Shown piece after piece: positions 1 through 58,838 of a stretch of 64,000 nucleotides of DNA (the first letter of the stretch is position 1; each line of letters opens with the position of its first letter). Source of the DNA: an uncultured virus (IMG/VR IMGVR_UViG_3300032050_007618). Lineage: Duplodnaviria; Heunggongvirae; Uroviricota; Caudoviricetes. Location: IMG/VR virus record IMGVR_UViG_3300032050_007618; one strand, given 5' to 3'. The translations under genes were made by a program, and so were the position numbers. The notes beneath the pieces are model-generated. The model ran no database searches. It was not told where the DNA came from and saw only the letters and a program-made list of their open reading frames with translations.

Positions 1-2
1 CA

Positions 3-1640
3 CAAGGCGACAAAGGCGCAACTGGTGCACAGGGCGACAAAGGTGCAACAGGATCACAAGGTGCGGTAGGTTCGCAAGGTGCGGTAGGTTCGCAAGGTGC
101 GGTAGGTTCGCAAGGTGCGGTAGGTTCGCAAGGTGCGGTAGGTTCACAAGGTGCAAAAGGTGCAACTGGTGCACAGGGCGACAAAGGTGCAACAGGCGCA
201 CAAGGTGACAAAGGTGCAACAGGCGCACAAGGTGCGGTGGGTGCAACTGGTGCACAAGGTGCGGTGGGTGCAACTGGTGCGCAAGGTGCAACCGGTGTCA
301 GTCCGGGTGGCTCAACTGGGTATTTGGCAAGATTTACTGGTGCTACAACTCTTGGTAACTCTATCATTTATGATAACTTGACTAACGTTGGTATTGGTAC
401 AACTACAAACAGTTATAAACTACACGTTGCAGGTGACATTTATGCCAACGGTGGTTGGTTAAGAGTTAGTGGTACCAACGGTCTATATTTTGAATCATAC
501 GGTGGCGGTTGGTTCATGAATGATAATACTTGGATAAGATCATATAGTAATAAAAATGTATGGACTGATACAGGTATAATAGCCACCAATGGTGGTTTCT
601 CCGCCGGTAGCAGTACAACACCTCCAGTCGGCGGTGCAATGATTGTGGGTAACACCATAATGGGTTCACAATCATCGCCTCTTGGTAAATTGGACGTGGT
701 TAGTACCTCAGCTGGGTCTACAGTAATTAATGCTCGTGGTGTTGCTGGTAATTTGTTTAGTGTGACTGATAGTTTGAGTGGTAGTTTGTTTAGTGTGAAT
801 ACCGCTGCCGGTTTCCCAGTAATGGAAGCATTCTCTGATAGTAGAGTTAACTTGGGTCAATATAACCAAAATGACTTGGTAGTAACGGGTAACAGAGTTG
901 GTATTGGTACCGCTGCTCCTACACACAAACTTCACGTAAGTTCAAGTGGCACTCCTGTTAAATTTGAAGGTCTAACTTCAAGTTCAACTGGTTATTATCT
1001 TACGGTCGATAACACTTCGGGTATTGTTTATAAAACTTCAACCGGCCCTCAAGGCGCACAAGGCGCTGTAGGCGCAACTGGTGCACAAGGTGATAAAGGT
1101 GCAACTGGTGCACAAGGTGATAAAGGTGCAACAGGCGCACAAGGCGATAAAGGTGCAACAGGCTCACAAGGTGCGGTAGGTTCACAAGGTGCAAAAGGTG
1201 CAACAGGTTCACAAGGTGCGGGTGGAACCAATGGTGTTTCAGGCGCACAAGGTGCAAAAGGTTCAACTGGCGCACAAGGCGCAAGTGGTACATCTGGAAG
1301 AACAGATGGTTTACAAACAAGTAACGGTGCTGCAACTGGTGCAATGACAGTTGATTTAAGTCAACAGATTACACAGTGGACTTTGAGTGGTAACGTAACA
1401 AGTATTGCTCATAGTAATGCAAAAGCTTCTGGTACTGTGAACAACTGGATATTAGCAGTGAACAGTACGTCAAGTACGATTACATGGCCATCTACATATA
1501 AATGGCCAGGCGGTGTTGCACCTACAATAACAAGTACTGCAAGTAGACGTGATCTATTTCAGTTTATTAGTTATGATGGCGCAAGTACATCAACTGGCAC
1601 AGTACATGCGATGGTCATTGCACAAAATATCACACCATAA
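3..1640 (+). CDS. Collagen-like tail/capsid fibre protein (5'-truncated)
   Basis: The frame is open from base 3 ([10 protein letters not shown]...), upstream of the track's GTG at 237. It has Gly-X-Y repeats, fibre motifs ([31 protein letters not shown]) and a C-terminal ITWP..KWPGG.AP adaptor-like domain. Confidence 0.85.
60..149 (+). repeat. Five tandem 18-bp repeats (GGTGCGGTAGGTTCGCAA) encoding GAVGSQ
   Basis: Four identical copies plus one copy with a single substitution, read directly. Confidence 0.95.
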
Positions 1641-1645
1641 CAGTT

Positions 1646-2599
1646 ATGATTCCTATTCCGTTACCAAACTGGTATATATATCCTTATCACAGATATCCAC
1701 AAGCGACTGGTTTTAATCGTGGATTACTTGCGTTTGGTGATTTGACTCCACCATATTCTCAATTAAACCGATCACTATCCTTTGCTACATATACGGAAAC
1801 AACACATACAAATATGAGCACCACCGCTCGTATTCAACCAATGCCTTGTGCAAGTCCAACGCATGTATATCAAATGAAAGGATACACCAGTGGTGGATAT
1901 ACATCAACTGTAAATAAACAACAAGCGTTTACAAATACAGAAAGTGTTCCAACAATTACATTTGGAACCGAACGTCGTGGCGGATCCATGCCAATGCCTC
2001 ATTTGAATCGTAACAGAATGTATTATATTGGTGGATACAGTGACAGTTTAGCCACATACACTACTACTATATCATGGGTAACACAAAATACGGAAACTGA
2101 AACAGCGTCGAGTGCTACTTTGCCCGGTGGTCGCCATCTTAGTGCTACTTTATTTAATACTATAGAATCATATAGTGTCGGGGGATATACACCGGGAGGT
2201 GGAACGTCTAGTACCAATTACAGATATACATTTGCAACTGATGCAACTGCAACAATGACGGCTGATACTTATAACTCACAAAATCCATGTGGATTTTCAA
2301 GTAATACCACCGGTTATAGAGTTCAGGGACAGGGACCGTCATATACTCAAAATACAAAATATTCTTTTTCAAGTGGGACTTGGGCAGCGGCCACAAATAG
2401 TCCTGAAAATAATGGAGGCGCATTTGGTACCGGTGCGTTTGTTAACCAATATGAAGGAGCGCTCTGGGGAGGATACAATTCATTTTTCTTAAAACGACTG
2501 GTATATAGGTTGGCGTGGTCAACCGAAACGTATACAAATAGTAGTTATACAACAGCGGATTCAAATAGTGGTTTCATTTATTATCACGGTACTTATTAA
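1646..2599 (+). CDS. Putative fibre-tip adhesin with Kelch-like beta-propeller repeats
   Basis: 317 aa, rich in S/T/G/Y, with repeated YxxGG motifs; directly follows the fibre gene. Confidence 0.5.
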   Translation: MIPIPLPNWYIYPYHRYPQATGFNRGLLAFGDLTPPYSQLNRSLSFATYTETTHTNMSTTARIQPMPCASPTHVYQMKGYTSGGYTSTVNKQQAFTNTESVPTITFGTERRGGSMPMPHLNRNRMYYIGGYSDSLATYTTTISWVTQNTETETASSATLPGGRHLSATLFNTIESYSVGGYTPGGGTSSTNYRYTFATDATATMTADTYNSQNPCGFSSNTTGYRVQGQGPSYTQNTKYSFSSGTWAAATNSPENNGGAFGTGAFVNQYEGALWGGYNSFFLKRLVYRLAWSTETYTNSSYTTADSNSGFIYYHGTY

Positions 2600-2604
2600 A
2601 AGTT

Positions 2605-3216
2605 ATGAACGAGATTATACAACAAAAATACAAAGATTTCAATGATTATTATGATTTGGGATCATTGGATATGTCACAATATACACTTGGAAGAACACGT
2701 TTTCAGTTAGAAAACTTTGTTCTTAGAGAACACGATTGTCCTGAACGCATGTTTCTTCAAGTCATTACTGAACTTAAAGCCTTACGTGACGGTACAATTA
2801 TCGACTGGTTGGAACAACAAAAAATCAAGATAGAGATCAAAAGATTGTTAGCAACCGGAGATGAAATTGATGCTTTAGAAGCTACCAAAAAACACTATAT
2901 TTTATGCACAATGCAAGAAAGTATGAAGAATAGAGAAAGAGAAATACGAATTCTTGCGGATGCATTAAAAAAGTTTCCGAAGATATATACCATTGAAGAT
3001 ATTGAAGCGGCTGAATCAGTCTATTGGGACAAACGTCTTACCAGACAAATGGCGGAAGACATGGTTAGTGCCCAAACTGGTATAAATCAAGGCAATATAC
3101 GTGCGGCAATAGAGGCCAATACAAGTGTTGAACAATACCTCTCGGGGTTCAAAGAACATTTATTGAAGCAGTTTAACCCTCAAGAAATGAATCCGAACAA
3201 TCTTTTAAACAAGTAA
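2605..3216 (+). CDS. Hypothetical coiled-coil protein of the fibre module
   Basis: 203-aa helical ORF packed tightly in the operon. Confidence 0.6.
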   Translation: MNEIIQQKYKDFNDYYDLGSLDMSQYTLGRTRFQLENFVLREHDCPERMFLQVITELKALRDGTIIDWLEQQKIKIEIKRLLATGDEIDALEATKKHYILCTMQESMKNREREIRILADALKKFPKIYTIEDIEAAESVYWDKRLTRQMAEDMVSAQTGINQGNIRAAIEANTSVEQYLSGFKEHLLKQFNPQEMNPNNLLNK

Positions 3217-3222
3217 ACCACT

Positions 3223-3768
3223 ATGGACAAACTTTACGTATTAGTATATTCTGGTAGCATAATTGCGTCAAATCCAGCGCCGTTACCAAATGTTTATAAC
3301 AATATTTCAAACTTTTCAAATCTTGGCGTTACTCAGCCAGAATTGTTGGTGGACCTTGCATGGAGTGGAAATTCATATCAAGGATTCTATGAAACTAAAA
3401 TTAATACGATGCCTACATGTAGCATATATTACGACATAGTTTCTGATTTTACCATTAATTCAACCAATTATAGTGTAACTCAAAGTTTTTCTACATCACC
3501 TGTTTCACAACAAGTTACAGACGGAAGAAACGAAGGATTGTGGAATCAAATACGTGAAATACGTACAAGATATCTTAAAAACACCGATTGGACTCAATTG
3601 CCAGATGTTAACTTGTCAACAGAAAAAGTACAAGAATATGTGGTTTTTAGACAACAATTACGATCAATAACAGATGACTATAGTGATCCATCACAAGTTA
3701 TTTGGCCAACTATACCAACCTCAAGCTCATTGGATCCATTTCCAGAACTACCTCGGTATTACTGTTAA
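3223..3768 (+). CDS. Tail fibre assembly chaperone
   Basis: C-terminal WNQIREIRTRYLKNTDWTQLPDV...RQQLRSIT...VIWP matches the phage tail assembly chaperone motif. Confidence 0.8.
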   Translation: MDKLYVLVYSGSIIASNPAPLPNVYNNISNFSNLGVTQPELLVDLAWSGNSYQGFYETKINTMPTCSIYYDIVSDFTINSTNYSVTQSFSTSPVSQQVTDGRNEGLWNQIREIRTRYLKNTDWTQLPDVNLSTEKVQEYVVFRQQLRSITDDYSDPSQVIWPTIPTSSSLDPFPELPRYYC

Positions 3769-3807
3769 TATAATAAAAATTTGTAAATCGGTGTTATATA
3801 TATTTGT

Positions 3808-4050
3808 ATGGAAATTACGTTATCTAACCTATCTTTGATCGAATTAAAGGCTCATGCCTATGATGAAATTCAAAAGATCGAAGTGGCGCAAAATACTCTC
3901 AAAAAGATAATTGAAACGTCACAAAATAATTTAAGACTGTTAAATTCTGAAATTATGAATAGATCCAACGTACCTCCCACTCCACCCGAACCGGTGAAGG
4001 AAGAGTCAATTCCACCAGTTTCAACCAAAAAATTACCAAAATTTCCTTAA
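3808..4050 (+). CDS. Hypothetical small coiled-coil protein
   Basis: 80-aa ORF after an AT-rich spacer. Confidence 0.6.
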   Translation: MEITLSNLSLIELKAHAYDEIQKIEVAQNTLKKIIETSQNNLRLLNSEIMNRSNVPPTPPEPVKEESIPPVSTKKLPKFP

Positions 4051-4055
4051 ACGTT

Positions 4056-4331
4056 ATGCCAGATACACTCAAGTTTACCGATGACGAAATCAACGAAATT
4101 CGTTTTTTACAAAACAAATTTCAAGACAAACTTATTAAGTTTGGTCAAATTCAATTGGAAATAATCGAATTGGAAGACCGGTTAACCGCTCTCAAAAATG
4201 AACAGTTAAGACTAAAAAATGACTATTTGTCACTTCAAAAGACAGAACAAGAGTTGATGGATAAGTTAACTAACAAATACGGAGAAGGTTCCTTAAACTT
4301 AAAAGAAGGAACTTTCACGCCATCAAAGTAA
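4056..4331 (+). CDS. Hypothetical coiled-coil protein
   Basis: 91 aa with a heptad pattern, ending LTNKYGEGSLNLKEGTF. Confidence 0.65.
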   Translation: MPDTLKFTDDEINEIRFLQNKFQDKLIKFGQIQLEIIELEDRLTALKNEQLRLKNDYLSLQKTEQELMDKLTNKYGEGSLNLKEGTFTPSK

Positions 4332-4367
4332 TACAAGTTTTATTCTTATTTACGTCACGATTGGTAA

Positions 4368-4375
4368 TATTTATA
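4368..4375 (+). promoter_or_regulatory. TATTTATA putative late promoter
   Basis: The same motif recurs upstream of about ten genes (see findings). Confidence 0.6.
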
Positions 4376-4398
4376 AGTCAATTGTATACTTATAAAAT

Positions 4399-5040
4399 AT
4401 GCCAACATACGATCCATCACCGAACGCAGTATTATTGAAACAGTTTCGTACTGGTTCCAATAATTATTTCGAAGAATCATATATATCCGGATCATCTGTA
4501 TTAATTCATACCGACATCACCGGTAGCGTAACCGGTTCAAATTTTACTCTCGCTGCCGATACCAATACATCATATCAACATGTGTTGTATCAAAATTCTA
4601 CATTTAAACTTGCAGCATCTGGAAGCATAGTCGGGGGATCAAGTTTAGTATCACGCCAAGAAAATATTTCAGTAGATACTAAAGCAGTAGTTAGCGGATT
4701 TGGTACGCAAAGTGATTTAAATAACGCTACCATCACATTCACCGGCGGTAATACATTGACAGTTAGTAACCTAAATGCATTTAAATTACAACAAATTACC
4801 GTAATTTATAATTCAAACGTTAACTCTACATCACAGTTTAACTTTGTATACCCAGAACCTAACGGACAAACATCAAGTACTTATACACAATACCCAATCG
4901 TAAGTTATTGGAATAATGCCAGTCCATCAGTAATACAATCAAATACCAATTGGAACGTATCCAATAGTTCTGGCATTTTAACCGTACAAAAAACCGGACT
5001 CGTATCTAATACAGCAGCTGTATTTAAAATTATAGTATAA
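4399..5040 (+). CDS. Putative virion structural protein
   Basis: 213 aa, S/T/N-rich and beta-rich; follows a TATTTATA motif in the fibre module. Confidence 0.55.
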
Positions 5041-5047
5041 ATTATAT

Positions 5048-8000
5048 ATGTCACACATTTATTTAACTGGAAAAATACTTCTTAACTCAGCAGTTACAAA
5101 TGGCGCACAGTGGGATATAAATTTCAACTTTAGCGACCTGAGTGGCGTATTTACAGGAAACGATGTTTTAATTGGTGATCACATCTATCTTGACGCATCC
5201 GATTATAACCTTTCTACCGGAATCATTAGATATGAAATTACAAACATATCACATCAAACCATATCTAATATAACATGTACTGTCAATTATATAGACGTTC
5301 ATATACCCGAACCAGATTTAACATTTATAACCGGACTGTCACACGTCATTTGTAGACCTACAGACAATCAACAACTTGCACAAGTCGTATCACCCGAAAT
5401 TCAACTAATTTCTGATAAATTTTCTTTTTTTCCATTAAACAAAAATTGGCAATATACCGACGCATCTGGCAGTTTTGGAACAAGTGGCGGCGGAGGCGCT
5501 CAAGGCGCTCAAGGCGCAGCTGGAACAAGCGGAGTTACAGGCGCACAAGGTGCAAAAGGTGCAACAGGCGCACAAGGTGCAAAAGGGGTTGATGCCAGTG
5601 GAACCAGTGGAACCAGTGGGGTTTCAGGCGCACAAGGCGACACAGGCGCACAAGGCGATAAAGGTTTAACAGGCGCACAAGGCGACAAAGGTGCAACAGG
5701 TTCACAAGGCGCAACTGGTACTGTAGGAAGTAGTGGAACCAGCGGACTTTCAATTACAGGCGCACAAGGCGACAAAGGATTGACAGGCGCACAAGGCGAC
5801 ACAGGCGCACAAGGCGACAAAGGCGCACAAGGTGATAAAGGATTGACAGGCGCACAAGGCGATAAAGGTTTAACAGGCGCACAAGGTGATAAAGGATTGA
5901 CAGGCGCACAAGGCGACACAGGCGCACAAGGTGCAAAAGGTGCAACAGGTTCACAAGGCGCAACTGGTACTGTAGGAAGCAGTGGAACCAGCGGACTTTC
6001 AATTACAGGCGCACAAGGCGACAAAGGCGCACAGGGTGATAAAGGTTTAACAGGCGCACAAGGCGATAAAGGATTGACAGGCGCTCAAGGCGACACAGGC
6101 GCACAAGGCGATAAAGGTTTAACAGGCGCACAAGGTGCAAAAGGGGTTGATGCCAGTGGAACCAGTGGAACCAGTGGGGTTTCAGGCGCACAAGGCGACA
6201 AAGGCGCACAAGGTGATAAAGGATTGACAGGCGCTCAAGGCGACAAAGGTGCAACAGGTTCACAAGGTGCAACTGGTGATGTAGGAAGCAGTGGAACCAG
6301 CGGACTTTCAATTACAGGCGCACAAGGCGACAAAGGTTTAACAGGCGCACAAGGCGACAAAGGTTTAACAGGCGCACAGGGTGATAAAGGTTTAACAGGC
6401 GCACAGGGTGATAAAGGTTTAACAGGCGCACAAGGCGACAAAGGTTTAACAGGCGCACAGGGTGATAAAGGTTTAACAGGCGCACAGGGTGATAAAGGTT
6501 TAACAGGCGCACAAGGCGCTGCCGGAACAAGTGGCGTTTCAGTTACAGTTCCCGGTGCAAATAATCAAGTTTTAACATCAGACGGATCTGGTGGAATTGT
6601 AGCTGAGGTTAATTTAACTTTTGATGGTACAAATTTAAGTAGTCCATATATCGTTTCTTCAAACTCAACGTTTGATGAGGGAGGTGAAATTTTATTAACT
6701 AAACCTTCTACTAATGCGTCTTATTCTGGCTCTGGAATAGTAATTGATGCATTTCAAAATAAAATAAGAATTTTTGAACAAGCTGGTTCTACTAGAGGAG
6801 CTTACATTGATATAACTGCATGTGCGGGAAATGTAGGTACAAATTTGTTATCACCATCAACCGGCGCACAAGGCGATAAAGGTTTGACAGGCGCACAAGG
6901 CGATAAAGGTTTGACAGGCGCACAAGGCGATAAAGGCTTGACAGGCGCTCAAGGTGACAAAGGATTGACAGGCTCACAAGGCGATAAAGGCGCAACGGGT
7001 TCACAAGGTGATAAAGGCGCAACAGGTTCACAAGGTGATAAAGGCGCAACAGGTTCACAAGGTGATAAAGGTGCACAAGGTGCTGCTGGAACTGGTGGGG
7101 TTTCAGGCGCACAAGGTGACAAAGGCGCAACTGGTTCTCAAGGTGACAAAGGCGCAACTGGTGTTCAAGGTGATAAAGGCGCAACTGGTGCTCAAGGTGA
7201 TAAAGGCGCAACAGGTTCACAAGGCGATAAAGGTGCAACAGGCGCACAAGGCGATAAAGGTGCACAAGGTACGGTAGGTTCACAAGGCGCAACTGGTGCT
7301 GTGGGAAGTAGTGGAACCAGCGGACTTTCAATTACAGGCGCACAAGGCGACAAAGGCGCAACTGGTGCACAAGGCGATAAAGGTGCAACAGGCGCACAGG
7401 GTGACAAAGGCGCAACTGGTGCTCAAGGTGACAAAGGCGCAACAGGTTCACAAGGCACAACTGGTGCTGTAGGAAGCAGTGGAACCAGCGGACTTTCAAT
7501 TACAGGCGCACAAGGTGCAAAGGGCGCAACTGGTGCACAAGGCGATAAAGGTGCAACAGGCGCACAGGGTGACAAAGGCGCACAAGGCGATAAAGGCGCA
7601 ACTGGTGCTCAGGGTGACAAAGGCGCAACAGGTTCACAAGGCACAACTGGTGCTGTAGGAAGCAGTGGAACCAGCGGACTTTCAATTACAGGCGCACAAG
7701 GTGCAAAGGGCGCAACTGGTGCACAAGGCGATAAAGGTGCAACAGGCGCACAAGGCGATAAAGGCGCACAAGGCGATAAAGGCGCACAAGGCGATAAAGG
7801 CGCAACTGGTGCTCAGGGTGACAAAGGTGCAACAGGTTCACAAGGCGACAAAGGTGCAACAGGTTCACAAGGTGACAAAGGCGCAACAGGCGCTCAGGGT
7901 GACAAAGGTGCAACTGGTGCACAAGGCGATAAAGGCTTGACAGGCGCTCAAGGTGACAAAGGTGCAACAGGCGCACAAGGCGATAAAGGTGCAACAGGCG

Positions 8001-9208
8001 CACAGGGTGACAAAGGTGCAACAGGCGCTCAAGGTGACAAAGGTGCAACAGGCGCTCAGGGTGCCAAAGGTGAATCAGTTGGAGTCCCATATAAATTTAA
8101 TACTTCTACTGCAGCAGCAACGCCAGGTGTTGGTTATATATCTTTTAATAATACCACGGTATCTGCTATTACTAAAATTTATATAAGCACTCAGGATATA
8201 AACCTTGTTGTTAGAACAGTATGGATACAACAATGGGACGACAGCACACAATCTGGTAATAGAGGTTATATATATATAAATAACAAGACAACAGGAACAG
8301 ATATAGAGTTTTATGTAAATGGAGCCAATGTTTCTCAAACTGGTTATTTTGAAATATCGGTCGATGATTTAAGAGGTACGTTGCCATCATTAGATGATAT
8401 TTTACATATAACATTTACTAGAAACGGTGACATTGGCGCACAAGGTGCGGCTGGGTCCAGTGGAATTACAGGTGCTCAGGGTGACAAAGGTGCAACTGGT
8501 GCACAAGGCGATAAAGGTGCAACAGGCGCACAGGGTGACAAAGGTGCAACTGGTGCTCAAGGCGATAAAGGTGCAACTGGTGCTCAAGGCGATAAAGGTG
8601 CAACAGGCGCACAAGGCGATAAAGGTGCAACAGGTTCACAAGGCGACAAAGGTGCTGCCGGAACAAGTGGCGTTTCAGGCGCACAAGGCGATAAAGGTGC
8701 AACTGGTGCTCAGGGTGCCAAAGGTGCTCAAGGTGACAAAGGTGCAACAGGCGCTCAAGGTGACAAAGGTGCAACAGGCGCTCAAGGTGACAAAGGTGCA
8801 ACAGGCGCTCAAGGTGACAAAGGTGCAACAGGCGCTCAGGGTGCTGCTGGTGGTGGTGGTACATCGGATCGTCGTTTGAAGAAAAATATTCGACCATTGA
8901 ACAAAGGGTTGAATGAGCTTTTGAAATTGAATCCAGTATCATTTGAGTATAATTCGGTTGGCAACGATAAAAAGTCGGAAGATGTAGTATCTTATGGCAT
9001 TATTGCTCAAGATATATTGAATGAATTTCCCGAACTAGTTACTACATTTGAACAAAAAGCACATCCTAATGATAAGGGTCCACAAAAGTATTACTGGGTT
9101 AATTCTGAAAAACTTCAATGGGTAACTATCAATGCTTTCAAGGAATTGAATGATAGAGTGATTGTTTTGGAAAAACAGGTTAAAGAATTGATGGAAAAAA
9201 TAAAATAA
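5048..9208 (+). CDS. Long collagen-like fibre protein with C-terminal S74-type intramolecular chaperone
   Basis: Three Gly-X-Y tracts ([12 protein letters not shown]) separated by globular domains. C-terminal SDRRLKKNI...GIIAQ...coiled coil is the peptidase S74 autocleavage signature. Confidence 0.9.
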
Positions 9209-9241
9209 TTGTTCAATTGGTTATATTGATAATTGTATATA

Positions 9242-11638
9242 ATGAGTTATAAAATTCTTTACATTACTCCTCATTTATCTACGGGTGGGTGTCCGCAGTA
9301 TCTTTTAAAGAAATTGCGGTTATTGAATGACATACATGAGTTATATTGTGTGGAATATAACGATTATGGCGAGTGGTTTGTTGTTCAAAAGAACCAAGTA
9401 AGAGAATTATTGAAAGAACGGTATTTTGTTTTGGGGGATAATAAGGAAGAGTTGTTATCGATCATTAACAAAGTACAACCGGACATAATACATTTGGAAG
9501 AAATGCCAGAATATTATATGTCTGATGACATATCGTCCAAGGTTTACACCAATAACAGGTTATACAACATTGTAGAAACGTCACATGACAGTAGTTTCAA
9601 CACTGCGTCTAAGCGTTTTTTCCCGGATCGGTTTGTTTTTGTGAGTAATTTTCAGAAAGAGTTGATGAAACCTTTGGGAATTGAGTCACATGTTGTTGAA
9701 TATCCTATTGTTCATAAGAATAAAGTGAACGATAGAGATAAAGCGTTGATTGCGTTGGGATTAGACCCTAATTTATTGCATGTGGTTAATGTGGGGTTAT
9801 GGTCACCGAGGAAAAATCAAGGTGAAATTGTTGAATATGCTAAGAAGATGATTGATTTGCCTATTCAGTTTCATTTTGTTGGTAATACTGCTGGTAACTT
9901 TGAGTCATACTGGTCACCTATTCTTAAAAATCTGCCATCTAACTGCAAAGTTTGGGGTGAACGTAGTGATGTTGACACGTTTTACAGTTGTATGGATTTG
10001 TTTTTGTTTACGAGTCGTGGAAATGAGAATGATAAGGAGACAAGTCCTATTGTTATACGTGAGGCTATTAGTTACAAGTTACCATCGTTGATATATAACT
10101 TGCCGGTTTATCTAAACATGTATGACAAGTATAGTAACATCAAATATTTGTCAAATGATTTGGATAAAAACGTGGATATTATACGATCATACATTTTAAA
10201 AAAAAACATTATAAGTGATTATTCTTATATTGTTTCCACGTATCCTACAACGTCTGCATCTTTTATTACCACGGTTCAATGTTTGAGATCGTTGACCAAC
10301 GCTCATAGAATTTTGACCACACATCATTCTTCGTATGAGAAGTTCAAGAATATTGCCGATACGGTGGTATATGATGAGGCAAATCCTATTATTAAGCACA
10401 CGTATTATTGTAATGCTTGGTGGGATACTGGACGATACCGATGTGATATCAATTTAAAGGCCAATGACAATGATAATTATCATGGATTGGCTGTTTGGAC
10501 CAATTATCAGAATGGAATACGTAAATCAAAAGAATTGGGTTATAAGTACAGTGTGTGTTTGAATTACGATATTGTATTGAATGATAAAGATTTGGTGGTG
10601 GTGGAAGATATTGTTAATCAATTGCGTACATCAACATCCAAGGGGTATTTTATTCATGAGGTATTGGGTGAAGGTGATACTTTAAAGACGGTATTTTTTG
10701 TTATTGACAATGATTATTTTATTGAAAAATTTGAAAGTGTATATAGTGAATCTGATTATAACGCAAGTATTGTTAAACACAACTCTCCATCAAATAGTTT
10801 GGAGAATTACACGTATCATGTGTTAAAGAACAACTTGAGTGATTTAATTATTACAAAAAAGAATGAGAGTGAATTGTTTCCGTATAGTTCATTGAATGCT
10901 TTTTCGTGTGTTGAGTATTTCACGGTGGTTCCTAATGAATCTCTTACTCAATTTTATATATGGAAGAGTTCTTCTAACTTGATTGACAACAAAAATGTTA
11001 TTATTCGTGTGTATGAGGACCGTGCGTGTATTTTGAAGATTGGGTATGTTCAGTTATATAATAGGAATTTTTATCATGTTGTTGATGTAAAACCGGGACG
11101 GGTTTATGATGTAACTTTGGAAGAATATAATTCTGATTGTGAATGCATCAATTTGAAAAAGATTACTGTATCTGATATTCGTGATATTGATAAAAACGGA
11201 CGGTTTGTATTGCGTGATGTGTCCATAAAACCTTCTAATAATATTAATCTACATCATATCAATTCAAATGATATCAAATTGGATTATGTTACAGAGTTAT
11301 CGGTGTGGGGGGTTACATATAGAAGTTATTTACATCAGTCTGAACTCGATGTGATTCATCAACTACAAAATTATGATAACGACATCAATGTAATTATCAA
11401 AAACGCTTCATTGAACGTATCTCCCGATCAACTTGTTCAATATATTCGAAAGACACATTCACATATGTTGACAAATAATATTTCGAGTACTTCATTGAAT
11501 CCCAGAAACGGTAAGAACAGTATCGCATATGTTGTGAACAGCAATTGGATTCGTAACTTTAAAACAATAGATTCTATAGACGAATTTCATAGTTATATGA
11601 AGGTGGGTTCTCTACACCATAATTTTAAATCGTTATGA
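9242..11638 (+). CDS. Multidomain glycosyltransferase (GT4/GT-B N-terminus plus additional domains)
   Basis: HLSTGGCPQ, NVGLWSPRKNQ and DLFLFTS...ETSPIVIREA are GT4 motifs. A second domain with LNYDIV may be GT-A-like. ATG at 9242 preferred over TTG at 9233. Confidence 0.8.
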   Translation: MSYKILYITPHLSTGGCPQYLLKKLRLLNDIHELYCVEYNDYGEWFVVQKNQVRELLKERYFVLGDNKEELLSIINKVQPDIIHLEEMPEYYMSDDISSKVYTNNRLYNIVETSHDSSFNTASKRFFPDRFVFVSNFQKELMKPLGIESHVVEYPIVHKNKVNDRDKALIALGLDPNLLHVVNVGLWSPRKNQGEIVEYAKKMIDLPIQFHFVGNTAGNFESYWSPILKNLPSNCKVWGERSDVDTFYSCMDLFLFTSRGNENDKETSPIVIREAISYKLPSLIYNLPVYLNMYDKYSNIKYLSNDLDKNVDIIRSYILKKNIISDYSYIVSTYPTTSASFITTVQCLRSLTNAHRILTTHHSSYEKFKNIADTVVYDEANPIIKHTYYCNAWWDTGRYRCDINLKANDNDNYHGLAVWTNYQNGIRKSKELGYKYSVCLNYDIVLNDKDLVVVEDIVNQLRTSTSKGYFIHEVLGEGDTLKTVFFVIDNDYFIEKFESVYSESDYNASIVKHNSPSNSLENYTYHVLKNNLSDLIITKKNESELFPYSSLNAFSCVEYFTVVPNESLTQFYIWKSSSNLIDNKNVIIRVYEDRACILKIGYVQLYNRNFYHVVDVKPGRVYDVTLEEYNSDCECINLKKITVSDIRDIDKNGRFVLRDVSIKPSNNINLHHINSNDIKLDYVTELSVWGVTYRSYLHQSELDVIHQLQNYDNDINVIIKNASLNVSPDQLVQYIRKTHSHMLTNNISSTSLNPRNGKNSIAYVVNSNWIRNFKTIDSIDEFHSYMKVGSLHHNFKSL

Positions 11639-13734
11639 AAATTTGTCATGTTACACCGGGATTGATTTCTATTCCTCCCAACGGATGGGGTGCAATTGAA
11701 AAGATTATTTGGGAATACAAACAATCGTTGGAACGATTGGGTCACATATGTGATATTAAATATTTGGATGATGTTCGTAAGGAAGATTATGACATTGTTC
11801 ATATACATGTTGCCAATCTCGCTTTGATTGCGTCAGAACGCAACATTCCTTATGTGTTTACGATGCACGATCATCATACTGAGGTGTATGGAAAAGATTC
11901 TGTATTGTATAAACAGAATCGTGACGCTATTGAGAAATCGGTTGTATCATTTGTACCCGCAAAACATTTGGTGTCATATTTTGATAGTAAACGTGTAAAG
12001 TATTTACGTCACGGTGTTAACAGTTCGTTTTTTACTTTTACGTCACGTGATATTCCAAATCGTCATAAACTATTGTGCGTTGGTCGTAATGGTTTGGCAG
12101 AAGACATGTCGTTTGATCGTAAAGGATTTATTTACGCAATTGAAGCTGCACGTAAACATGGACTTGAAATAACTGTCGCTGGTCCTAGTGCCAATAAGGA
12201 ATTCTTTGAAAAAAACAAAGATTTCAAACCGTATGATAAATTGACGTTTATGTACGATTTGAATGAAGAACAACTGTTAACAACTTATCAGAATCATACG
12301 ATTTTCCTACATCCTTCATCTGTAGAAGCTGGTCATCCAAATTTAACTTTGCTTGAAGCAATGTCGTGTGCTCTTCCCGTTGTATCTACATATGATGATA
12401 ATAGTTTACCGGGAATGGTCAAGATAGAACGTACAGTTGATTCTGTGTATAATGGAATTGCAACTGTGATGAATACGTGGGAAATTTTACGTAAAGAGGC
12501 ACTTGCGTATGCCCGAGACAATGATTGGAATCATATTGTGGATGATTTGGTTAGGGAATATAGAAAGATTGATGAATACCGTATGACAAATGAATTGAAT
12601 GAGATTTATGATTCAACTCAGAGTACTGATAAACAATTACAGGGTGCTAAGATAGAGATTAACTATACGGATGGTGCATATTTGTCTATTAATGGCGGTG
12701 ATGTAAATACTCGTTACAGTTTTGACTTTATTGATGATGAATTTGACGAAGTTTTGTACAGTGGTACAATTAAAACAAACGAGTGGGCAAAATGTTTAAT
12801 CAAACGTTATATTCCGTATCGTGTTAAGTTGAGTGTAGATTCAAAACTTTTGTTGAATCAAAAGTTGAATTTGAAAGGTAAAGAAGTTTTGATTTGTATG
12901 GATACTAAGTCACTTGGTGATTGTATTGCGTGGTTTCCATATATTGAAGAATTTAGAAAGAAACATGAATGTAATGTTACATGTGCTACGAATTGGGAGT
13001 CATTGTTTAAAGAAAACTATCCAGACATTAAGTTTTGTGGATTACAGTGGAGTGGAAATTTTTATGCTATTTACATGATCGGTTGTTATCCCGATACACA
13101 TCGTTCTTTGTTTAACTATAAAGATGTTTCGTTGCAAAGACTATCATCGTCTATATTGGGAGTCAATCATAAAGAGATTAGACCTAATGTTGTCATTAAG
13201 AATACCGCTCGAAAAATTGAACAAAAGTATGTTTGTTTTGCGACACAATCAACTGCTCAGGCCAAGTATTGGAACAATCCAACTGGTTGGCAAGAGACGT
13301 GTGATTATTTGAACAGTATTGGTTTGAAACCGGTTTTGATTCAATCAGAAAAAGAAGACAGATTTACAAATATCCTCAATCTTTCTGGTCCCAAAGACAT
13401 ACATGAAACTATAAATCTTTTGTATAATTGTGAGTTTTTCATCGGCATTGGATCTGGTTTGTCGTGGTTATCGTGGGCAGTTAAAAAGCCTACGGTATTG
13501 GTGAGTGGTTTTAGTTTACCTCGTAGTGAATTTTTCACTCCGTATCGGGTTATTAATACCAACGTATGTAATGGTTGTTGGAATGAATATGATTTTGACC
13601 GTGGGGATTGGAATTGGTGTCCTCGTCAAAAAGGAACTCCACGTCAATTTGAGTGTTCCCGAGAAATTAGTTCTAAGATGGTCATTGATACCATCAACAA
13701 ACTTGTTATAGATGAAGGTATACGTACATCTTGA
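11635..13734 (+). CDS. GT4 glycosyltransferase fused to an Aah/TibC-type autotransporter O-heptosyltransferase
   Basis: N-terminal IPPNGWGAIE...EAGHPNLTLLEAM (GT4). C-terminal SLGDCIAWFPY, GIGSGLSWLSW, EFFTPYRV and C-x2-C-x13-C-x11-C resemble TibC/Aah. Confidence 0.85.
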   Translation: MKICHVTPGLISIPPNGWGAIEKIIWEYKQSLERLGHICDIKYLDDVRKEDYDIVHIHVANLALIASERNIPYVFTMHDHHTEVYGKDSVLYKQNRDAIEKSVVSFVPAKHLVSYFDSKRVKYLRHGVNSSFFTFTSRDIPNRHKLLCVGRNGLAEDMSFDRKGFIYAIEAARKHGLEITVAGPSANKEFFEKNKDFKPYDKLTFMYDLNEEQLLTTYQNHTIFLHPSSVEAGHPNLTLLEAMSCALPVVSTYDDNSLPGMVKIERTVDSVYNGIATVMNTWEILRKEALAYARDNDWNHIVDDLVREYRKIDEYRMTNELNEIYDSTQSTDKQLQGAKIEINYTDGAYLSINGGDVNTRYSFDFIDDEFDEVLYSGTIKTNEWAKCLIKRYIPYRVKLSVDSKLLLNQKLNLKGKEVLICMDTKSLGDCIAWFPYIEEFRKKHECNVTCATNWESLFKENYPDIKFCGLQWSGNFYAIYMIGCYPDTHRSLFNYKDVSLQRLSSSILGVNHKEIRPNVVIKNTARKIEQKYVCFATQSTAQAKYWNNPTGWQETCDYLNSIGLKPVLIQSEKEDRFTNILNLSGPKDIHETINLLYNCEFFIGIGSGLSWLSWAVKKPTVLVSGFSLPRSEFFTPYRVINTNVCNGCWNEYDFDRGDWNWCPRQKGTPRQFECSREISSKMVIDTINKLVIDEGIRTS

Positions 13735-14524
13735 AAGCAATCAATTGGGTGACTGCATTGCGTGGTTACCCTATATTGATATTGCCAGAGAAAAATATGG
13801 ATGGGACGTATATACAAACTTTTATTATAAAAATTTGTTTGCGGACTCGTATCCTTACCTGAAATTTGAGGTACCGTCTTCATATGATAAGAAAGTGGTG
13901 ATTGACGTTGTTGATAGAGAAAAACCTCTACAATGGTCATCTGCGCACGCTTTAGGGGTTGATTATAGTGAACAACGTCCACGATTTAATCTATCAAAAC
14001 TCAAAAAGACTCCGGGTAAGACAATTACTTTTTCTGAATATGGAAGTAACTATTGTAAGTCGTGGAACAATCCTATGGGATGGTTTAAAACGATACAACA
14101 CATTAAAACTATAGGATATGATCCAATTGCGGTATCAAAAGAACCGACTTTGTTATTAAACGTAGCTGATTGTACCGGTTTGGATCTATTGGAGGTCTGT
14201 AACTTGATTTATAGTTCTTCTGTATATATTGGTGTAAGTTCAGGATTGGCGTGGTTGGCATGGTGTTTGGGTATACCTGTAATCATGATAAGTGGACATA
14301 CCAAGCGTTATTTTGAATTTAACAGTAATATTGTTAGATTGGGTCCATCAGAACCAATCTGTTTTGGGTGTTATAACGATAACAATTTAGAAATTAACTG
14401 GGAAGACGTATGGTGTCCACACTATAAAGGAACCTACAGACAACATGAGTGTACATATACTATTAGTCATACCGATGTAGTTAACGCTATAAATTATGTG
14501 CTAAAAAATAGTCTTAAAATATAA
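13712..14524 (+). CDS. Second Aah/TibC-like (GT9-type) heptosyltransferase, single domain
   Basis: QLGDCIAWLPY, GVSSGLAWLAW and C-x2-C-x14-C-x11-C. Confidence 0.8.
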   Translation: MKVYVHLESNQLGDCIAWLPYIDIAREKYGWDVYTNFYYKNLFADSYPYLKFEVPSSYDKKVVIDVVDREKPLQWSSAHALGVDYSEQRPRFNLSKLKKTPGKTITFSEYGSNYCKSWNNPMGWFKTIQHIKTIGYDPIAVSKEPTLLLNVADCTGLDLLEVCNLIYSSSVYIGVSSGLAWLAWCLGIPVIMISGHTKRYFEFNSNIVRLGPSEPICFGCYNDNNLEINWEDVWCPHYKGTYRQHECTYTISHTDVVNAINYVLKNSLKI

Positions 14525-14618: not shown

Positions 14619-17600
14619 ATGCCAATTACAGAAGGGGGAACATTTACCCCACATGATAAAATTGTAAGTCCAGGCGTTTTCAGTCGTGAAAACGATCTAT
14701 CAGGACTTGCTCAGGGCGTGGCTGATATCGGTGGGGCCATTGTCGCTCCCTTTCCAAAGGGACCGGGATTTGCTCCAACGATTGTCACCAGCGTGTCTGA
14801 GTTAGAAGAAAAATTCGGTGTAGCGGACGGAGTATATTACGGTCCATACACTGCCAAACAGTATCTACAGGAACAGGGTCTTGTGACCATTTGTCGTGTA
14901 GGTGCGTTGACCGGATATAAGCAAGATAATCCATTTGTTATCTACGCAATTCCGGGTTATTATAATCGTGCAAACGAAAGTGGTTCATTTACTGCTTTGG
15001 GAACAGCCGATTCATCATATATCGCTCTGGATCCAGACGATATTACAGTTAACGTACAATACGTTAGTTCAAGTGGCGGTACTGAGACATTGACTATTAC
15101 CGGCAGTTTGTACGCAAACTTCGAAACCAGTTCATTCTCAACCTACAACCCACCAGGCACAACTGGTAACAAGACTTACACCACTCGTTATATCGGTGAT
15201 GTAAATCTCACATTTGACGCTGCGTCATTTGAAATCAGTTCAAGTTATCAAGGTGACTTGACAATTAGTTCTGAAGCTAAGTTGTTACGTGCTCTTGCTG
15301 AACAAACTGGACGTTTGTCTGGTAGTTTGGCAACCACAAGCAGTTTGGTTAAGTTGAGTGACGACTTCCCAGTTTCAGGTACTGCGTCTGAAGTTATTAT
15401 CAATGGCATCAATTTTGCCAAGTACCGTCCAACCAATAGTTGCGGTGTTCAAATTCAATTGACTTGTAACATTACTGGTAGTTTTGGTAAGTTTACTACA
15501 TTCACCGAGACCGTTGTTTCTGGTGGAGATCCATGTAATCCAGGCGCAGCCCGTGAAGCAGTAGTGCTTGCAGTATTGGGAAATACCCAAAACGCAACTA
15601 TTCAATCGGATGCATCTAACAAGTTGGCACAAGTTGTATATGGTTTCGAAGGTTCAGTGTTGAGCAAGAAGGTTGCAACATCAGGATTGTACAGTGGTAG
15701 CGCTGATCCAACCGCACAAGACTTTGTTCTTGACTTGCGTTATAACATCGGTGGTTCAAGTGGAAGTTATGGAACCTATGAATTCTCATTGGATCCAGCA
15801 AGTTCTAACTATATTACCAATGTATTTGGAACAGATCCAACTGCAGGTGATCCAGCAAAACAAGTTGCTGGTCAAAAGATTGAAGCTGCATATCTCTACA
15901 AGATCTTCAAGGATACCATCGCTCGTATTTCTGAAGAGTCAACCGATCCTTCCGATGGTTGGAAGATTGTAGGAAGTGAAGCTCCTTATACACCAACTGG
16001 TGGTGAAAATAAGGTTCAATTCACTGGTAATCCATTGAAGCTTACTGACGACTTTGGTTACTCACCAACAACTGGTGACAGTGACTTCAGTTTGAAGTGG
16101 GCAACCACTCCATGGGTTAACTCACAACAAGTTGCACCATTCACTGGCACAGCTGATGTGACTGCTCGTCCACAACGTTTCCCACTCTTCCGTCTACACA
16201 CACTTGCTGACGGAACCAATACAAACACTTCCTACAAGGTTGAAATCAGTGACGTAAAACTCGCTGGTACTGTTGCTGGTAGTGACTATGGTTCATTCAC
16301 ATTGAGTGTACGTAAGTTCAGTGACACTGATAAGAATCCTAAGTACTTGGAACGTTTCCAAAACTTGAATCTTGATCCAGATAGCAGTAACTTTATCGCT
16401 CGCCGTATTGGTGATCGTTACAACTATATTGCTTACTCTGGTAAGATTATTGAGTTTGGTACTTATGCTAACTTGAGTAAGTATATTCGTGTTGAGATGA
16501 CCGAGAATGTGTATCCAGAAGCAGCAATTCCTTATGGATTTGATGCTCTTGCTACACCACTCGGAGGTAACGTTGGTGGATTCTTGCCACCAGTACAGTT
16601 TACCCGCGCTTCAACATATTCATCTGCTCCGGGTAAGTATCCATCAGGTATCGTGTTTGGTGAGCCACCAGTTGGTGCATCAGACGATTTGTTGGCCTTG
16701 TATCCTACATCATCAGTTGGTGTATATAGCGTACATAACGACAATCTTCAATACTTCGCTCCATTGCCTGCTTACGAAGGTTTCACTTCAATCGGCAATA
16801 ACGTTGTATTCGATCTTGAAACTGGTGATACATACAATCCAACTGGTTCTAAACAACCAGACGTTCAAAACGATAGCGGTGGTGTTCCATCAACTTATGA
16901 CGCTGCATACGAATCAACACGTGTGAAGATGCGTAAGTTCGTCTTTGGTTTCCAAGGCGGATTTGATGGTCAATCACCAGCAATTCCAATTAATGTTGGA
17001 TCTGATATCATCCCAGGCAATACACAAGGTTTGAATTGTACCAACATTACAAGCCCAGGCAGTGTTGCTTACAGACAGTGTGTCGGTGCATTGGGTAACG
17101 CTGATGAGTTCGATATTAACTTGATCGCTACTCCGGGTATCTTCTACCAACACCACAGTTATGTGGCTCAGTTGGTAATCGATATGTGTGAAGCACGTGG
17201 TGATTGTTTCTACATCATGGATAACGTGGTGTTTCCTAAGAGCAATCAAAGCACTGGATTGATTGATGCCGCAATTAACGTTGCTGCCACAATCGATAGC
17301 AGTTACGCTGCTACTTACTATCCATGGGTCAAGATTCTTGACACCAACTTGAACAAGATTATTAGTGTACCTCCATCTGTTGTTCTACCTGCTATCTACG
17401 CAGCAAACGATAAGGCATCTGCTGAATGGTTTGCTCCAGCCGGTTTGAACCGTGGTGGTATCACTCAAGCTGTTCAAGTGTTGGATCGTTTGACACACGG
17501 TGAACGTGATACACTCTATGAAGGTCGTGTTAACCCAATCGCAGCATTCCCCGGTCAGGGTATCTGTGTATGGGGTCAAAAGACTCTTCAAATCGCACCA

Positions 17601-17927
17601 AGCGCATTGGATCGTATCAACGTTCGTCGTTTGATGATCAACTTGAAGAAGTTCATTGCTTCAAGTTCACGTTTCTTGGTATTCGAACAGAACGTGGCAA
17701 ATACACGTAATCGTTTCTTGAGTATCGTTAATCCATATTTGGAACAAGTACAATCACGTAGTGGTTTGTACGCCTTCCAAGTTAAGATGGACGAAACCAA
17801 CAACACACCTGATTTGATCGATAGAAACATCCTCTACGGACAAATCTTCCTACAACCAACCAAGACTGCTGAATTCATCGTTCTTGACTTCAACATCTTG
17901 CCAACTGGTGCAAGTTTCGGTGCTTAA
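14619..17927 (+). CDS. Contractile tail sheath protein (T4 gp18-like)
   Basis: N-terminal SPGVFSRENDLS and C-terminal YYPWV..WFAPAGLNRG..VNPI..WGQKTL..DRINVRRL..LQPTKTAEFIVLDF. Confidence 0.95.
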   Translation: MPITEGGTFTPHDKIVSPGVFSRENDLSGLAQGVADIGGAIVAPFPKGPGFAPTIVTSVSELEEKFGVADGVYYGPYTAKQYLQEQGLVTICRVGALTGYKQDNPFVIYAIPGYYNRANESGSFTALGTADSSYIALDPDDITVNVQYVSSSGGTETLTITGSLYANFETSSFSTYNPPGTTGNKTYTTRYIGDVNLTFDAASFEISSSYQGDLTISSEAKLLRALAEQTGRLSGSLATTSSLVKLSDDFPVSGTASEVIINGINFAKYRPTNSCGVQIQLTCNITGSFGKFTTFTETVVSGGDPCNPGAAREAVVLAVLGNTQNATIQSDASNKLAQVVYGFEGSVLSKKVATSGLYSGSADPTAQDFVLDLRYNIGGSSGSYGTYEFSLDPASSNYITNVFGTDPTAGDPAKQVAGQKIEAAYLYKIFKDTIARISEESTDPSDGWKIVGSEAPYTPTGGENKVQFTGNPLKLTDDFGYSPTTGDSDFSLKWATTPWVNSQQVAPFTGTADVTARPQRFPLFRLHTLADGTNTNTSYKVEISDVKLAGTVAGSDYGSFTLSVRKFSDTDKNPKYLERFQNLNLDPDSSNFIARRIGDRYNYIAYSGKIIEFGTYANLSKYIRVEMTENVYPEAAIPYGFDALATPLGGNVGGFLPPVQFTRASTYSSAPGKYPSGIVFGEPPVGASDDLLALYPTSSVGVYSVHNDNLQYFAPLPAYEGFTSIGNNVVFDLETGDTYNPTGSKQPDVQNDSGGVPSTYDAAYESTRVKMRKFVFGFQGGFDGQSPAIPINVGSDIIPGNTQGLNCTNITSPGSVAYRQCVGALGNADEFDINLIATPGIFYQHHSYVAQLVIDMCEARGDCFYIMDNVVFPKSNQSTGLIDAAINVAATIDSSYAATYYPWVKILDTNLNKIISVPPSVVLPAIYAANDKASAEWFAPAGLNRGGITQAVQVLDRLTHGERDTLYEGRVNPIAAFPGQGICVWGQKTLQIAPSALDRINVRRLMINLKKFIASSSRFLVFEQNVANTRNRFLSIVNPYLEQVQSRSGLYAFQVKMDETNNTPDLIDRNILYGQIFLQPTKTAEFIVLDFNILPTGASFGA

Positions 17928-57591: not shown

Positions 57592-57936
57592 TTATCTAAA
57601 AAACTTATTTACGATCAGTAAATATATAACAAGTGTAAACACATAAATTACCGGAAATATGTAAAATGTGGAGAAAATCCATGAAGATAGTAGAGTAAAC
57701 CAGAATCCAATACACCATGGACAATTAACAAGTTTGGTAAAAAAGTTTGGATATGTTTGTTTTAGCCACGACAAATATTCCAAACTGAAATCACTTTCTT
57801 GTGCTTTTTCAAATTCACCAATTTTAAACAGACGTTTCAAATTAAATAGGTTGCAGTATTCAACAAACGCTTCTGTATGAAACCACACAACCAAAAACGT
57901 AACTCCGATAAATATTGTATTTAGTATGTCGATCAT
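57592..57936 (-). CDS. Membrane protein with CPWC motif (DUF1360-like)
   Basis: Hydrophobic segments and KLVNCPWCIGFW. Confidence 0.6.
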   Translation of the reverse strand: MIDILNTIFIGVTFLVVWFHTEAFVEYCNLFNLKRLFKIGEFEKAQESDFSLEYLSWLKQTYPNFFTKLVNCPWCIGFWFTLLSSWIFSTFYIFPVIYVFTLVIYLLIVNKFFR

Positions 57937-58838
57937 AATGATTTAAATGCGTAGTTATTCTTGTTAACAAACTCTCTCAAGCAGTTTCCTAGTTCTGATT
58001 CGGCTTTGCTTTTAAAGTTATTTCTATCTTCAAAATAAGTGATGTATTCCTTGTATGGATTGTGTCTCAATAAATAGTTTTCTGCCACAATGATGTTTTC
58101 CATTAAATATTGTTGAAAATCTACTTTATTGAGTTTCATTATTTGTGCTGCAAACATGACATAGGTATCATCCACACCGTAGGGACCAAGAACGTCTGGT
58201 ATATCGGTAAACGTAAGTAGATTGGAACTAATTAGATTGAACCACCCACCTCCAAACTTGGTTGGATCACACTTGATAAGATTTACATCTTCACTATATG
58301 ACTTGCGGTTTACTTCAAAATACGGATTGATGTTTCGTTCACTTCCATATTTGTTGTTGATAAACTGATGATTCACCAAGTGATCCCACGTTTGATCCCA
58401 AATCTTGGTGATTTGAGGTGTAATAATGTAGTATTGATTCTTAACCTGTTTTGCACAATGTATAGAATACGCTAGAATACCAGATGGAAATACCAAATCC
58501 GAATCCAAATATAGAAACGCATCTACATCTTTGCCATACTTACGAACGCTATTACGACGTTTGTCGTTGATACCTCTACAACTACCGTGGTCATCAACAT
58601 CAAAGATATAGTTTCTCGCCCAACTAGTGTGAGTCACATATTTACTCATTGACTCAAACTTATCAATAAAAAAATCCTTGGGTATCTTGGTCTTATTCCA
58701 GTCAACCGTATTCAGATTGAGCGTAACATCCAAGGTTATTTCTGACGAATCAATCATCTCTTGACTCAGCACGGTCAACTGACGTTCAAATTCGTCTAAC
58801 TCATGAGGTAGAAGATGTGTAACAATTTGTATTTTCAT
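57933..58838 (-). CDS. Putative GT-A glycosyltransferase
   Basis: YLDSD (DxD), GGGWF and YGVDDT; lies in the glycan operon. Confidence 0.65.
   Translation of the reverse strand: MKIQIVTHLLPHELDEFERQLTVLSQEMIDSSEITLDVTLNLNTVDWNKTKIPKDFFIDKFESMSKYVTHTSWARNYIFDVDDHGSCRGINDKRRNSVRKYGKDVDAFLYLDSDLVFPSGILAYSIHCAKQVKNQYYIITPQITKIWDQTWDHLVNHQFINNKYGSERNINPYFEVNRKSYSEDVNLIKCDPTKFGGGWFNLISSNLLTFTDIPDVLGPYGVDDTYVMFAAQIMKLNKVDFQQYLMENIIVAENYLLRHNPYKEYITYFEDRNNFKSKAESELGNCLREFVNKNNYAFKSL

Follow-up and report, generated by a model that had tools for sequence, protein, structure and literature searches.

The window analyzed here is a 64-kb stretch of the uncultured virus IMGVR_UViG_3300032050_007618, a large uncultured freshwater phage with a myovirus-type gene set. 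Directly behind two collagen-like tail fibre genes, it encodes three glycosyltransferases (GTs), two of which contain domains related to TibC, a protein O-glycosyltransferase. From gene content and comparative sequence analysis, we conclude that the TibC-like GTs probably O-glycosylate the phage's own collagen-like tail fibre. The fibre, GT and sheath genes lie on the same strand with overlapping or near-abutting ends, and they and the open reading frames (ORFs) between them follow in this order:

3..1640, plus strand: collagen-like tail fibre 1, 545 amino acids, open at the 5′ end of the window (PF01391, 92 bits; tail-fibre PHROGs)
1646..5040, plus strand: six small ORFs (1646-2599, 2605-3216, 3223-3768, 3808-4050, 4056-4331 and 4399-5040)
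5048..9208, plus strand: collagen-like tail fibre 2, 1386 amino acids (PF01391, 402.6 bits)
9233..11638, plus strand: P0003, a GT of the Glycos_transf_1 / Glyco_trans_1_4 type (Pfam)
11635..13734, plus strand: P0004, a GT4 domain (residues 1 to ~325) fused to a TibC/Aah-type domain (residues 331-690) (Pfam, TIGR04414, 4RAP)
13712..14524, plus strand: P0005, a short TibC-like GT of 270 amino acids (4RAP match)
14619..17927, plus strand: tail sheath, 1102 amino acids (Pfam and PHROG), the next gene after the GT module throughout the wider clade of the window

The GT genes overlap by 4 bases (P0003/P0004) and 23 bases (P0004/P0005). No strong terminator-like hairpin was found upstream of 17946 in the fibre-GT-sheath block; the first ones stand behind the sheath gene, at 17946-17973 and 18175-18198. 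We propose that the fibre-GT block is a cassette of late genes in a large myovirus from freshwater. The initial annotation had already placed three GTs directly after two collagen fibre genes, and the gene order confirms this.

We identify fibres 1 and 2 as collagen-like (PF01391) tail fibres, predicted to be trimeric. Both PF01391 scores lie well above the Pfam cut-off of 27.2 bits. The context is that of tail fibres: a match to phrog_6320 (E 1.4e-210), a Peptidase_S74 intramolecular chaperone domain at the C-terminus of fibre 2 (PF13884, E 3.2e-14), as in trimeric fibres, and a tail-fibre assembly chaperone encoded at 3223-3768 (PF16778, E 3e-11; phrog_4912, E 1.5e-18). The other five inter-fibre ORFs matched no known family by Pfam. 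Fibre 1 has two Gly-X-Y tracts around a globular domain, with 62 triplets and one Pro within them, and fibre 2 has 11 tracts with 298 triplets, no Pro inside, and three globular inserts. The two fibres together thus hold 360 Gly-X-Y triplets and a single Pro. The commonest triplets of fibre 2 are GAQ (77), GDK (68), GAT (46) and GLT (21), and its Y positions are Thr in 75/298 and Ser in 34/298 cases. Its tracts are interrupted by 11 Ser-rich blocks of the GTSG[TLV]S type, with two main 13-residue forms present in 6 and 2 copies. Fibre 2 holds 18 copies of the pattern G[ST]SG[STLVA]S, which is found in none of the other six-frame ORFs of at least 60 amino acids in the window, a confinement that is not due to chance. 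Fibre 2 is therefore of a mixed type, in which the Gly-Thr-Ser type survives as 11 blocks. Pro-poor collagen fibres with Thr in Y positions and Ser-rich interruptions, as first described for this locus, are fully borne out.

Each of the three GTs has a distinct domain composition. The N-terminal ~330 residues of P0003 form a GT-B glycosyltransferase of the Glycos_transf_1 family. Its C-terminal ~470 residues belong to no known family and form a domain seen only in viruses; the predicted fold (11-row alignment) has a mean predicted local distance difference test (pLDDT) score of 58, with most of the C-terminal domain below 50, and an Atlas look-up of this domain returned virus-only clusters without a family at template modelling (TM) scores of at most 0.5. 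P0004 scores 328.2 bits on TIGR04414 (hepto_Aah_TibC), above the NCBI equivalog cut-off of 200, and only 25 and 18 bits on the models of lipopolysaccharide (LPS) heptosyltransferases I and II. Its residues 331-690 align with TibC residues 15-386 in PDB 4RAP (E 4.8e-71), and the N-terminal beta-barrel (TibC residues 1-97) is recognized in P0004 by alignment only. P0005 matches 4RAP over TibC residues 104-386 only (E 1.3e-29); because its alignment starts at residue 104, it lacks the N-terminal barrel.

The part of the TibC paper concerned with individual residues (PMC4358343) gives Asp-110 as the base and places Thr-226 and Lys-230 at the beta-phosphate, Arg-286 at adenine N1 as the stated basis of adenosine diphosphate (ADP)-sugar use, Trp-305 at heptose O4, and Pro-300 as the residue for stereoselectivity. 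There, the Arg-286 contact is described as weak, yet the R286A mutant is inactive. The same part ties the iron finger (Cys-339, 342, 358 and 370) to dodecamer assembly and protein-substrate recognition, and attributes the building of this dodecamer to a beta-hairpin thumb (Phe-265, Val-266). We compared these positions using HMMER alignments to TibC and an alignment of 49 phage representatives. Asp-110, Thr-226, Lys-230, Trp-305 and the four iron-finger Cys are invariant in 49/49 phage representatives. The catalytic set of P0004 consists of Asp-429, the proposed catalytic base, Thr-540 and Lys-544, while P0005 has Asp, Ser and Lys at the three positions. The LGD motif of both enzymes aligns with the catalytic Asp-110, and both keep the Trp-305 equivalent and the four Cys of the predicted iron site, so the LGD and four-Cys motifs noticed earlier in two of the GTs are those of TibC. 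As judged by these alignments, P0004 and P0005 are true TibC relatives with an intact catalytic core; they depart from TibC in the nucleotide contact and in the element that forms the ring.

We then examined the surroundings of related enzymes, using the nearest record (G001) and IMG/VR contigs as comparison material. Relatives of P0004 were found in 273 viral stretches, and 79 loci with flanks of up to 10 kb were retained from these; a Gly-X-Y ORF was defined as a frame free of stops that holds 8 or more triplets in runs of 6 or more. Such an ORF is present at 47/79 TibC-like viral loci, compared with 0/35 control loci centred on the RecA-like protein (Fisher p 5e-11) and 1/49 sheath-centred loci without TibC. 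When 115 TibC-bearing loci were grouped into 52 clusters (TibC domain, 80% identity), 28 clusters had a Gly-X-Y ORF, 25 of them within 5 kb. The arrangement also occurs in the 735-kb phage LR756501, where the same GT4-TibC fusion (43% identity) stands beside a P3-like GT and a collagen ORF.

The linked ORFs share a repeat type. In 24/28 clusters the partner is a nearly Pro-free Gly-[Thr/Ser]-Ser repeat in which Ser and Thr make up 56-100% of X and 44-100% of Y positions. The remaining four partners are truncated end pieces; three come from the window's closest relatives and are Ala/Gln-rich like the window fibres. In a relative with a 73%-identical GT4-TibC protein, a (Gly-Thr-Ser)n ORF stands in place of fibre 2; on the whole contig its frame runs to 5275 codons, and the globular inserts that interrupt the repeat indicate that the frame is real. 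The initial annotation had pointed to Y-position Thr. Thr in Y is unsupported as a conserved acceptor, as most TibC-linked partners have few Thr and mostly Ser in that position. Since Gly-[Thr/Ser]-Ser is what the partners have in common, the likelier acceptors are predicted to be the 11 GTSG[TLV]S-type blocks of fibre 2, rather than the Y-position Thr of GAT and GLT.

Microcystis phage Mel-JY01 (PP395634.1), the closest cultured relative of the window's phage (sheath 44% identical, RecA-like protein 51%), encodes at 4750-8430 a 1226-residue protein that joins a GT1-family and a TibC domain and is annotated as 'methyltransferase FkbM'. At 2-3049 of the same record lies a plus-strand, stop-free, Gly-periodic frame of 1016 codons with 202 triplets, mostly Gly-Thr/Ser-Ser. 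Over that frame, the record has two minus-strand hypothetical genes and one short plus-strand gene.

The pairing is also found in bacteria. A search with a profile of 24 phage TibC domains yielded 43 TibC-like loci in bacterial genomes and metagenome-assembled genomes, a set biased towards the phage branch from which two search patterns were taken. A Gly-X-Y ORF is present at 28/43 of these loci, in 21 cases less than 400 bp from the TibC-like gene, and nearly all partners are of the Gly-Thr/Ser-Ser/Ala type. On the complete chromosome of a Methylobacter sp. (NZ_CP197401.1, 8968-11152), among ordinary chromosomal neighbours, a 281-residue protein whose start resembles a signal peptide and which contains a GTN/GTS/GLS tract is encoded directly upstream of a 432-residue TibC-like gene. 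The pairing thus reaches beyond phages, which speaks for an enzyme-substrate pair. Taken together, the counts in phages (47/79 against 0/35 and 1/49) and bacteria (28/43) make self-glycosylation of the collagen fibres, as originally suggested for this phage, the best-supported reading by comparison, although they bear on linkage rather than on the modification itself.

Several observations weigh against this interpretation. At the level of the enzymes, the search against the Aah/TibC profile, which had been suggested as a check, succeeds for P0004 but leaves P0005 below the cut-off at 153 bits. The Arg-286 position is Thr in P0004 and Val in P0005, so the adenine contact is missing. The thumb region, which builds the dodecamer in TibC, is shortened: it has 11 residues in P0004, against 16 in 30/51 and 19-20 in 10/51 aligned sequences, and alignments to TibC show gaps of 8-9 residues here. 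At the level of the fibres, fibre 1 has no Gly-Thr-Ser blocks, and the window fibres consist mainly of GAQ, GDK and GAT triplets. Linkage to collagen genes in related phages is also incomplete. No Gly-X-Y ORF lies within the fetched 10 kb in 24/52 clusters, and of the sheath-centred loci, 31/80 have TibC but only 5/31 of those have a Gly-X-Y ORF. In a sister subclade, the GT module (a P3-like GT, at times another GT, and GT4-TibC) stands between replication genes and the sheath, and the collagen ORFs lie ~30 kb from TibC, showing that adjacency is not universal. These distant fibres are of the same Gly-Thr-Ser type; one has 546 triplets, including 283 GTS and 151 GSS. On whole contigs of the window's clade, by contrast, PF01391 was found in 13/14 with TibC and in 3/15 without it (single match each), a comparison weakened by the fact that ~10 of the 14 contigs with TibC appear to represent a single lineage and that many contigs are fragments. 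Neither TibC nor a collagen gene is present in two near-complete genomes (296 and 304 kb).

Contig ends bear on these counts. Contigs of seven close relatives (L006, L007, L009-L012 and L014) end ~0.4-1.4 kb upstream of the P3-like GT, within Gly-X-Y repeats, and the 5′ end of the window likewise falls within fibre 1. The repeats thus seem to break assemblies, so that fibre genes are undercounted in metagenomes. The pairing is undercounted as well, since the repeats shortly before the GT genes are where many contigs stop.

We next considered the sugar donor. Members of the BAHT family, to which TibC and Aah belong, transfer heptose from ADP-heptose to Ser, and the initial annotation had named host ADP-heptose as a possible donor. 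This part of the proposal fared poorly. Neither the Pfam nor the NCBIfam hits of the window include a heptose-pathway family and, together with the replacement of Arg-286, this leaves host ADP-heptose a possible but doubtful donor. P0004 and P0005 are therefore better not named heptosyltransferases. A phage-borne ADP-heptose pathway is unsupported for this clade, with gmhA above cut-off in 1 and rfaE domain II in 0 of 47 related records. The sole clear heptose-pathway gene in those records is a GmhA gene (LR756504.1, 430182-430640; 251.5 bits, above the equivalog cut-off) in a 636-kb uncultured phage, ~27 kb from its TibC-like gene. The loss of the adenine-contact Arg and the shortened thumb suggest that the enzyme may work differently from TibC.

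Arg is found at the 286 position in 11/49 phage representatives and 12/43 bacterial loci. Enzymes without it more often have a Gly-X-Y neighbour (48/67, against 5/23 with Arg; raw Fisher p 5e-5), but a tree of 91 sequences built with FastTree shows only 4 changes of the Arg state, leaving 2-4 independent pairs. With so few independent changes, the association may be a clade effect, and we do not claim Arg-286 loss as a mark of collagen-linked enzymes.

Companion GTs are common around TibC. A P3-like GT is present in the locus in 40/52 TibC clusters and fused to TibC in 6, and a GT4 domain is present in 27/52, as a TibC fusion in 25. Such fusions point to a glycan built from more than a single sugar. 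The window also carries a glycan toolkit at 53358-62237, ~40 kb from the fibre genes:

53358-54197, plus strand: RmlA (profile match)
54213-55076, plus strand: RmlD-like reductase (profile match)
55078-56340, plus strand: nucleoside diphosphate (NDP)-sugar C-methyltransferase (profile match)
56337-57296, plus strand: RmlB (profile match)
57933-58838, minus strand: ORF without a family
58835-59920, minus strand: UDP-galactopyranose mutase (UDP, uridine diphosphate; profile match)
59924-60871, minus strand: GT4-like protein (profile match)
60868-61491, minus strand: FkbM methyltransferase (profile match)
61488-62237, minus strand: HtrL/YibB-like protein (profile match)

RmlA and RmlB both score above their equivalog cut-offs (TIGR01207, 364.9 against 360.65 bits; TIGR01181, 371.3 against 365.1 bits), and PF08484 is matched on the same strand at E 1.2e-42. 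In the minus-strand group (57933..62237), TIGR00031 reaches 416.7 bits against a cut-off of 303.75. Judging by gene content, these nucleotide-sugar genes may feed the fibre glycan. Two further ORFs without a family follow at 62209-62955 and 62952-63890.

Other targets of the GT module have to be weighed against the fibre. The module might glycosylate another virion protein, such as the 1102-residue sheath or the capsid, with fibre adjacency being incidental. Across the wider clade, it is indeed the sheath, not a collagen gene, that is the constant neighbour of P3 and the GT4-TibC module; the low share of Gly-X-Y ORFs at TibC-bearing sheath loci given above fits this idea, one locus (L031) has replication genes upstream of the module, and capsid and tail-tube subunits of mycobacteriophages are glycosylated according to the part of PMC12619734 that covers them. 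Outside the clade, however, no sheath match lies beside TibC in the fetched loci, whereas the Gly-[Thr/Ser]-Ser partner recurs, and it does so even in bacteria, where virion genes are absent. Moreover, sheath-adjacent subclade contigs still hold Gly-Thr-Ser fibres ~30 kb away, and neither the sheath nor any other window ORF contains G[ST]SG[STLVA]S. We therefore consider a different virion target unlikely.

That the enzymes instead modify host molecules (LPS, surface proteins or envelope glycans), for superinfection exclusion or receptor masking, strikes us as quite unlikely. The idea draws on the nearest family outside TibC/Aah, the GT9 LPS heptosyltransferases (PF01075), on the dTDP-sugar (deoxythymidine diphosphate-sugar), UDP-galactofuranose and HtrL/YibB-like genes, which are of kinds otherwise used for cell-surface glycans, and on phage GTs that alter host serotypes, as covered in part of PMC12619734. 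But P0004 scores an order of magnitude higher on the protein-glycosylating TIGR04414 (328 bits) than on the LPS models (25 and 18), it keeps the iron finger that the corresponding section of PMC4358343 ties to protein-substrate recognition, and its gene lies within the structural block; a host target would also leave the Gly-X-Y linkage in phages and bacteria unexplained. Glycosylation of phage DNA against restriction, as by the T4 glucosyltransferases, is very improbable. DNA-modifying phage GT-B enzymes are well known (as cited in PMC12619734) and the window encodes many nucleotide-metabolism genes, yet the equivalog-level match here is to a family of protein O-glycosyltransferases with an iron finger that binds protein, the enzymes are encoded amid structural genes, and the Gly-X-Y linkage would again go unexplained.

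Under glycosylation of the phage's own fibre, the soluble GTs would act in the cytoplasm of the infected cell, late and before fibre assembly, much as TibC acts prior to export of its substrate. In fibre 2, the TibC-like domains of P0004 and P0005 would start the glycan on Ser/Thr within the Gly-Thr/Ser-Ser blocks by placing the first sugar, with the conserved Asp as base, and perhaps other Ser/Thr of both fibres would be modified too. The GT4 domain of P0004 and the GT of P0003 could then extend the glycan, using donors that may include sugars from the phage's own dTDP-sugar and UDP-galactofuranose genes. The resulting sugar coat would stiffen or stabilize the Pro-free triple helix, or shield the fibre.

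Among known systems, TibC-TibA and Aah-AIDA-I (BAHT; TIGR04414; PDB 4RAP/4RB4) are the nearest in enzyme family, with P0004 above the equivalog cut-off. By comparison with TibC as described in part of PMC4358343, the barrel, the two-lobe catalytic domain and the iron finger align, and in both cases soluble enzymes stand beside a repetitive, Ser/Thr-bearing fibrous substrate, which is a prediction in the phage. The substrate of TibC is a beta-helical autotransporter, whereas that predicted here is a Gly-X-Y virion fibre; no autotransporter family was found among the Pfam hits of the window ORFs, and thus no nearby autotransporter. The phage enzymes further differ in the GT4 fusion of P0004, the missing barrel of P0005, the lost Arg-286 and the shortened thumb. 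Arg-286, the thumb and the autotransporter substrate are the three points on which the phage enzymes depart from the TIGR04414 family as described.

The closest functional analogue is the SgtA-BclA3 pair of Clostridioides difficile. In the sections of PMC7157674 that deal with it, SgtA, encoded beside BclA3, glycosylates Thr of the GPT repeats with N-acetylglucosamine (GlcNAc), Ser being an acceptor as well. Shared with our system are a GT gene adjoining a collagen-like surface-fibre gene and an O-linked sugar on Gly-X-Y, predicted in the phage; SgtA differs in being a GT-A type enzyme that uses UDP-GlcNAc, and hence unrelated to TibC, in its Pro-containing GPT repeat, and in belonging to a spore rather than a phage (same sections of PMC7157674). 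Mycobacteriophage GTs glycosylate their own virion proteins (Freeman et al. 2023, as cited in PMC12619734), but that part of the review names capsid and tail-tube subunits, modified at their C-termini, and no collagen-like fibres as targets. Vent-worm and giant-virus systems are eukaryotic or giant-viral and use other enzymes, so that the likeness is one of idea only. In vent-worm cuticle collagen, glycosylated Thr stabilizes a Pro-poor triple helix; giant viruses put their own glycans on surface fibrils; and the BclA glycoprotein of the Bacillus exosporium is itself a glycosylated collagen-like surface fibre. We found no description of a TibC-like GT paired with a collagen-like fibre in open-access papers and bioRxiv preprints.

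The rest of the window is consistent with a large myovirus. From base 1 to ~57 kb it forms a single plus-strand block, in which the sheath gene is followed by tail tube, baseplate and tape-measure genes and then by replication and nucleotide-metabolism genes. Sheath families match the sheath only from residue ~806 (phrog_23, 806-1100; Pfam, 824-1093), and its first ~800 residues have no family match. A search with the sheath C-terminus found at least 593 viral stretches, the best 80 of which are 74-98% identical, which places the phage in a common, uncultured group. GenBank phages searched for DNA nearly identical to 9233-17927 gave no match. Further along, an ORF at 48391-49581 has a Pfam match to DruA of the Druantia defence system (E 4.9e-21), which is odd in a lytic-looking phage. 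The region 44606-47622 encodes a MoxR/AAA_5-type ATPase (44606-45556) followed by a 672-residue ORF without a family, and 50463-51389 encodes a UvdE-type UV damage endonuclease (PF03851, E 1.6e-38), here in a phage.

The TibC family is known from two E. coli adhesin systems, and in this phage it appears with what is predicted to be a different class of substrate. It is carried by at least 273 stretches of viral DNA and by 43 bacterial loci. A broader and more tentative suggestion is that the TibC-like GT and the Gly-[Thr/Ser]-Ser repeat may form an undescribed, very widespread enzyme-substrate system, serving the fibres of many large aquatic phages and secreted proteins of some bacteria, in which dense O-glycans could replace hydroxyproline in holding together a Pro-free triple helix or make the repeat a stiff, mucin-like brush, and in which the window's branch has maybe left ADP-heptose for another, possibly phage-made sugar. 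If the fibres are glycosylated, TibC-like genes would need re-annotation, as with the TibC-domain gene of Mel-JY01 now named a methyltransferase, and the enzyme and repeat would offer a simple, clonable pair for glycosylated collagen-like materials. Few cases of glycosylated phage virions were met in the literature. Fibre glycosylation of the kind proposed here would explain the stability of long Pro-free fibres, some with thousands of Gly-Thr-Ser triplets, and would add an extra layer to phage-host recognition and virion shielding.

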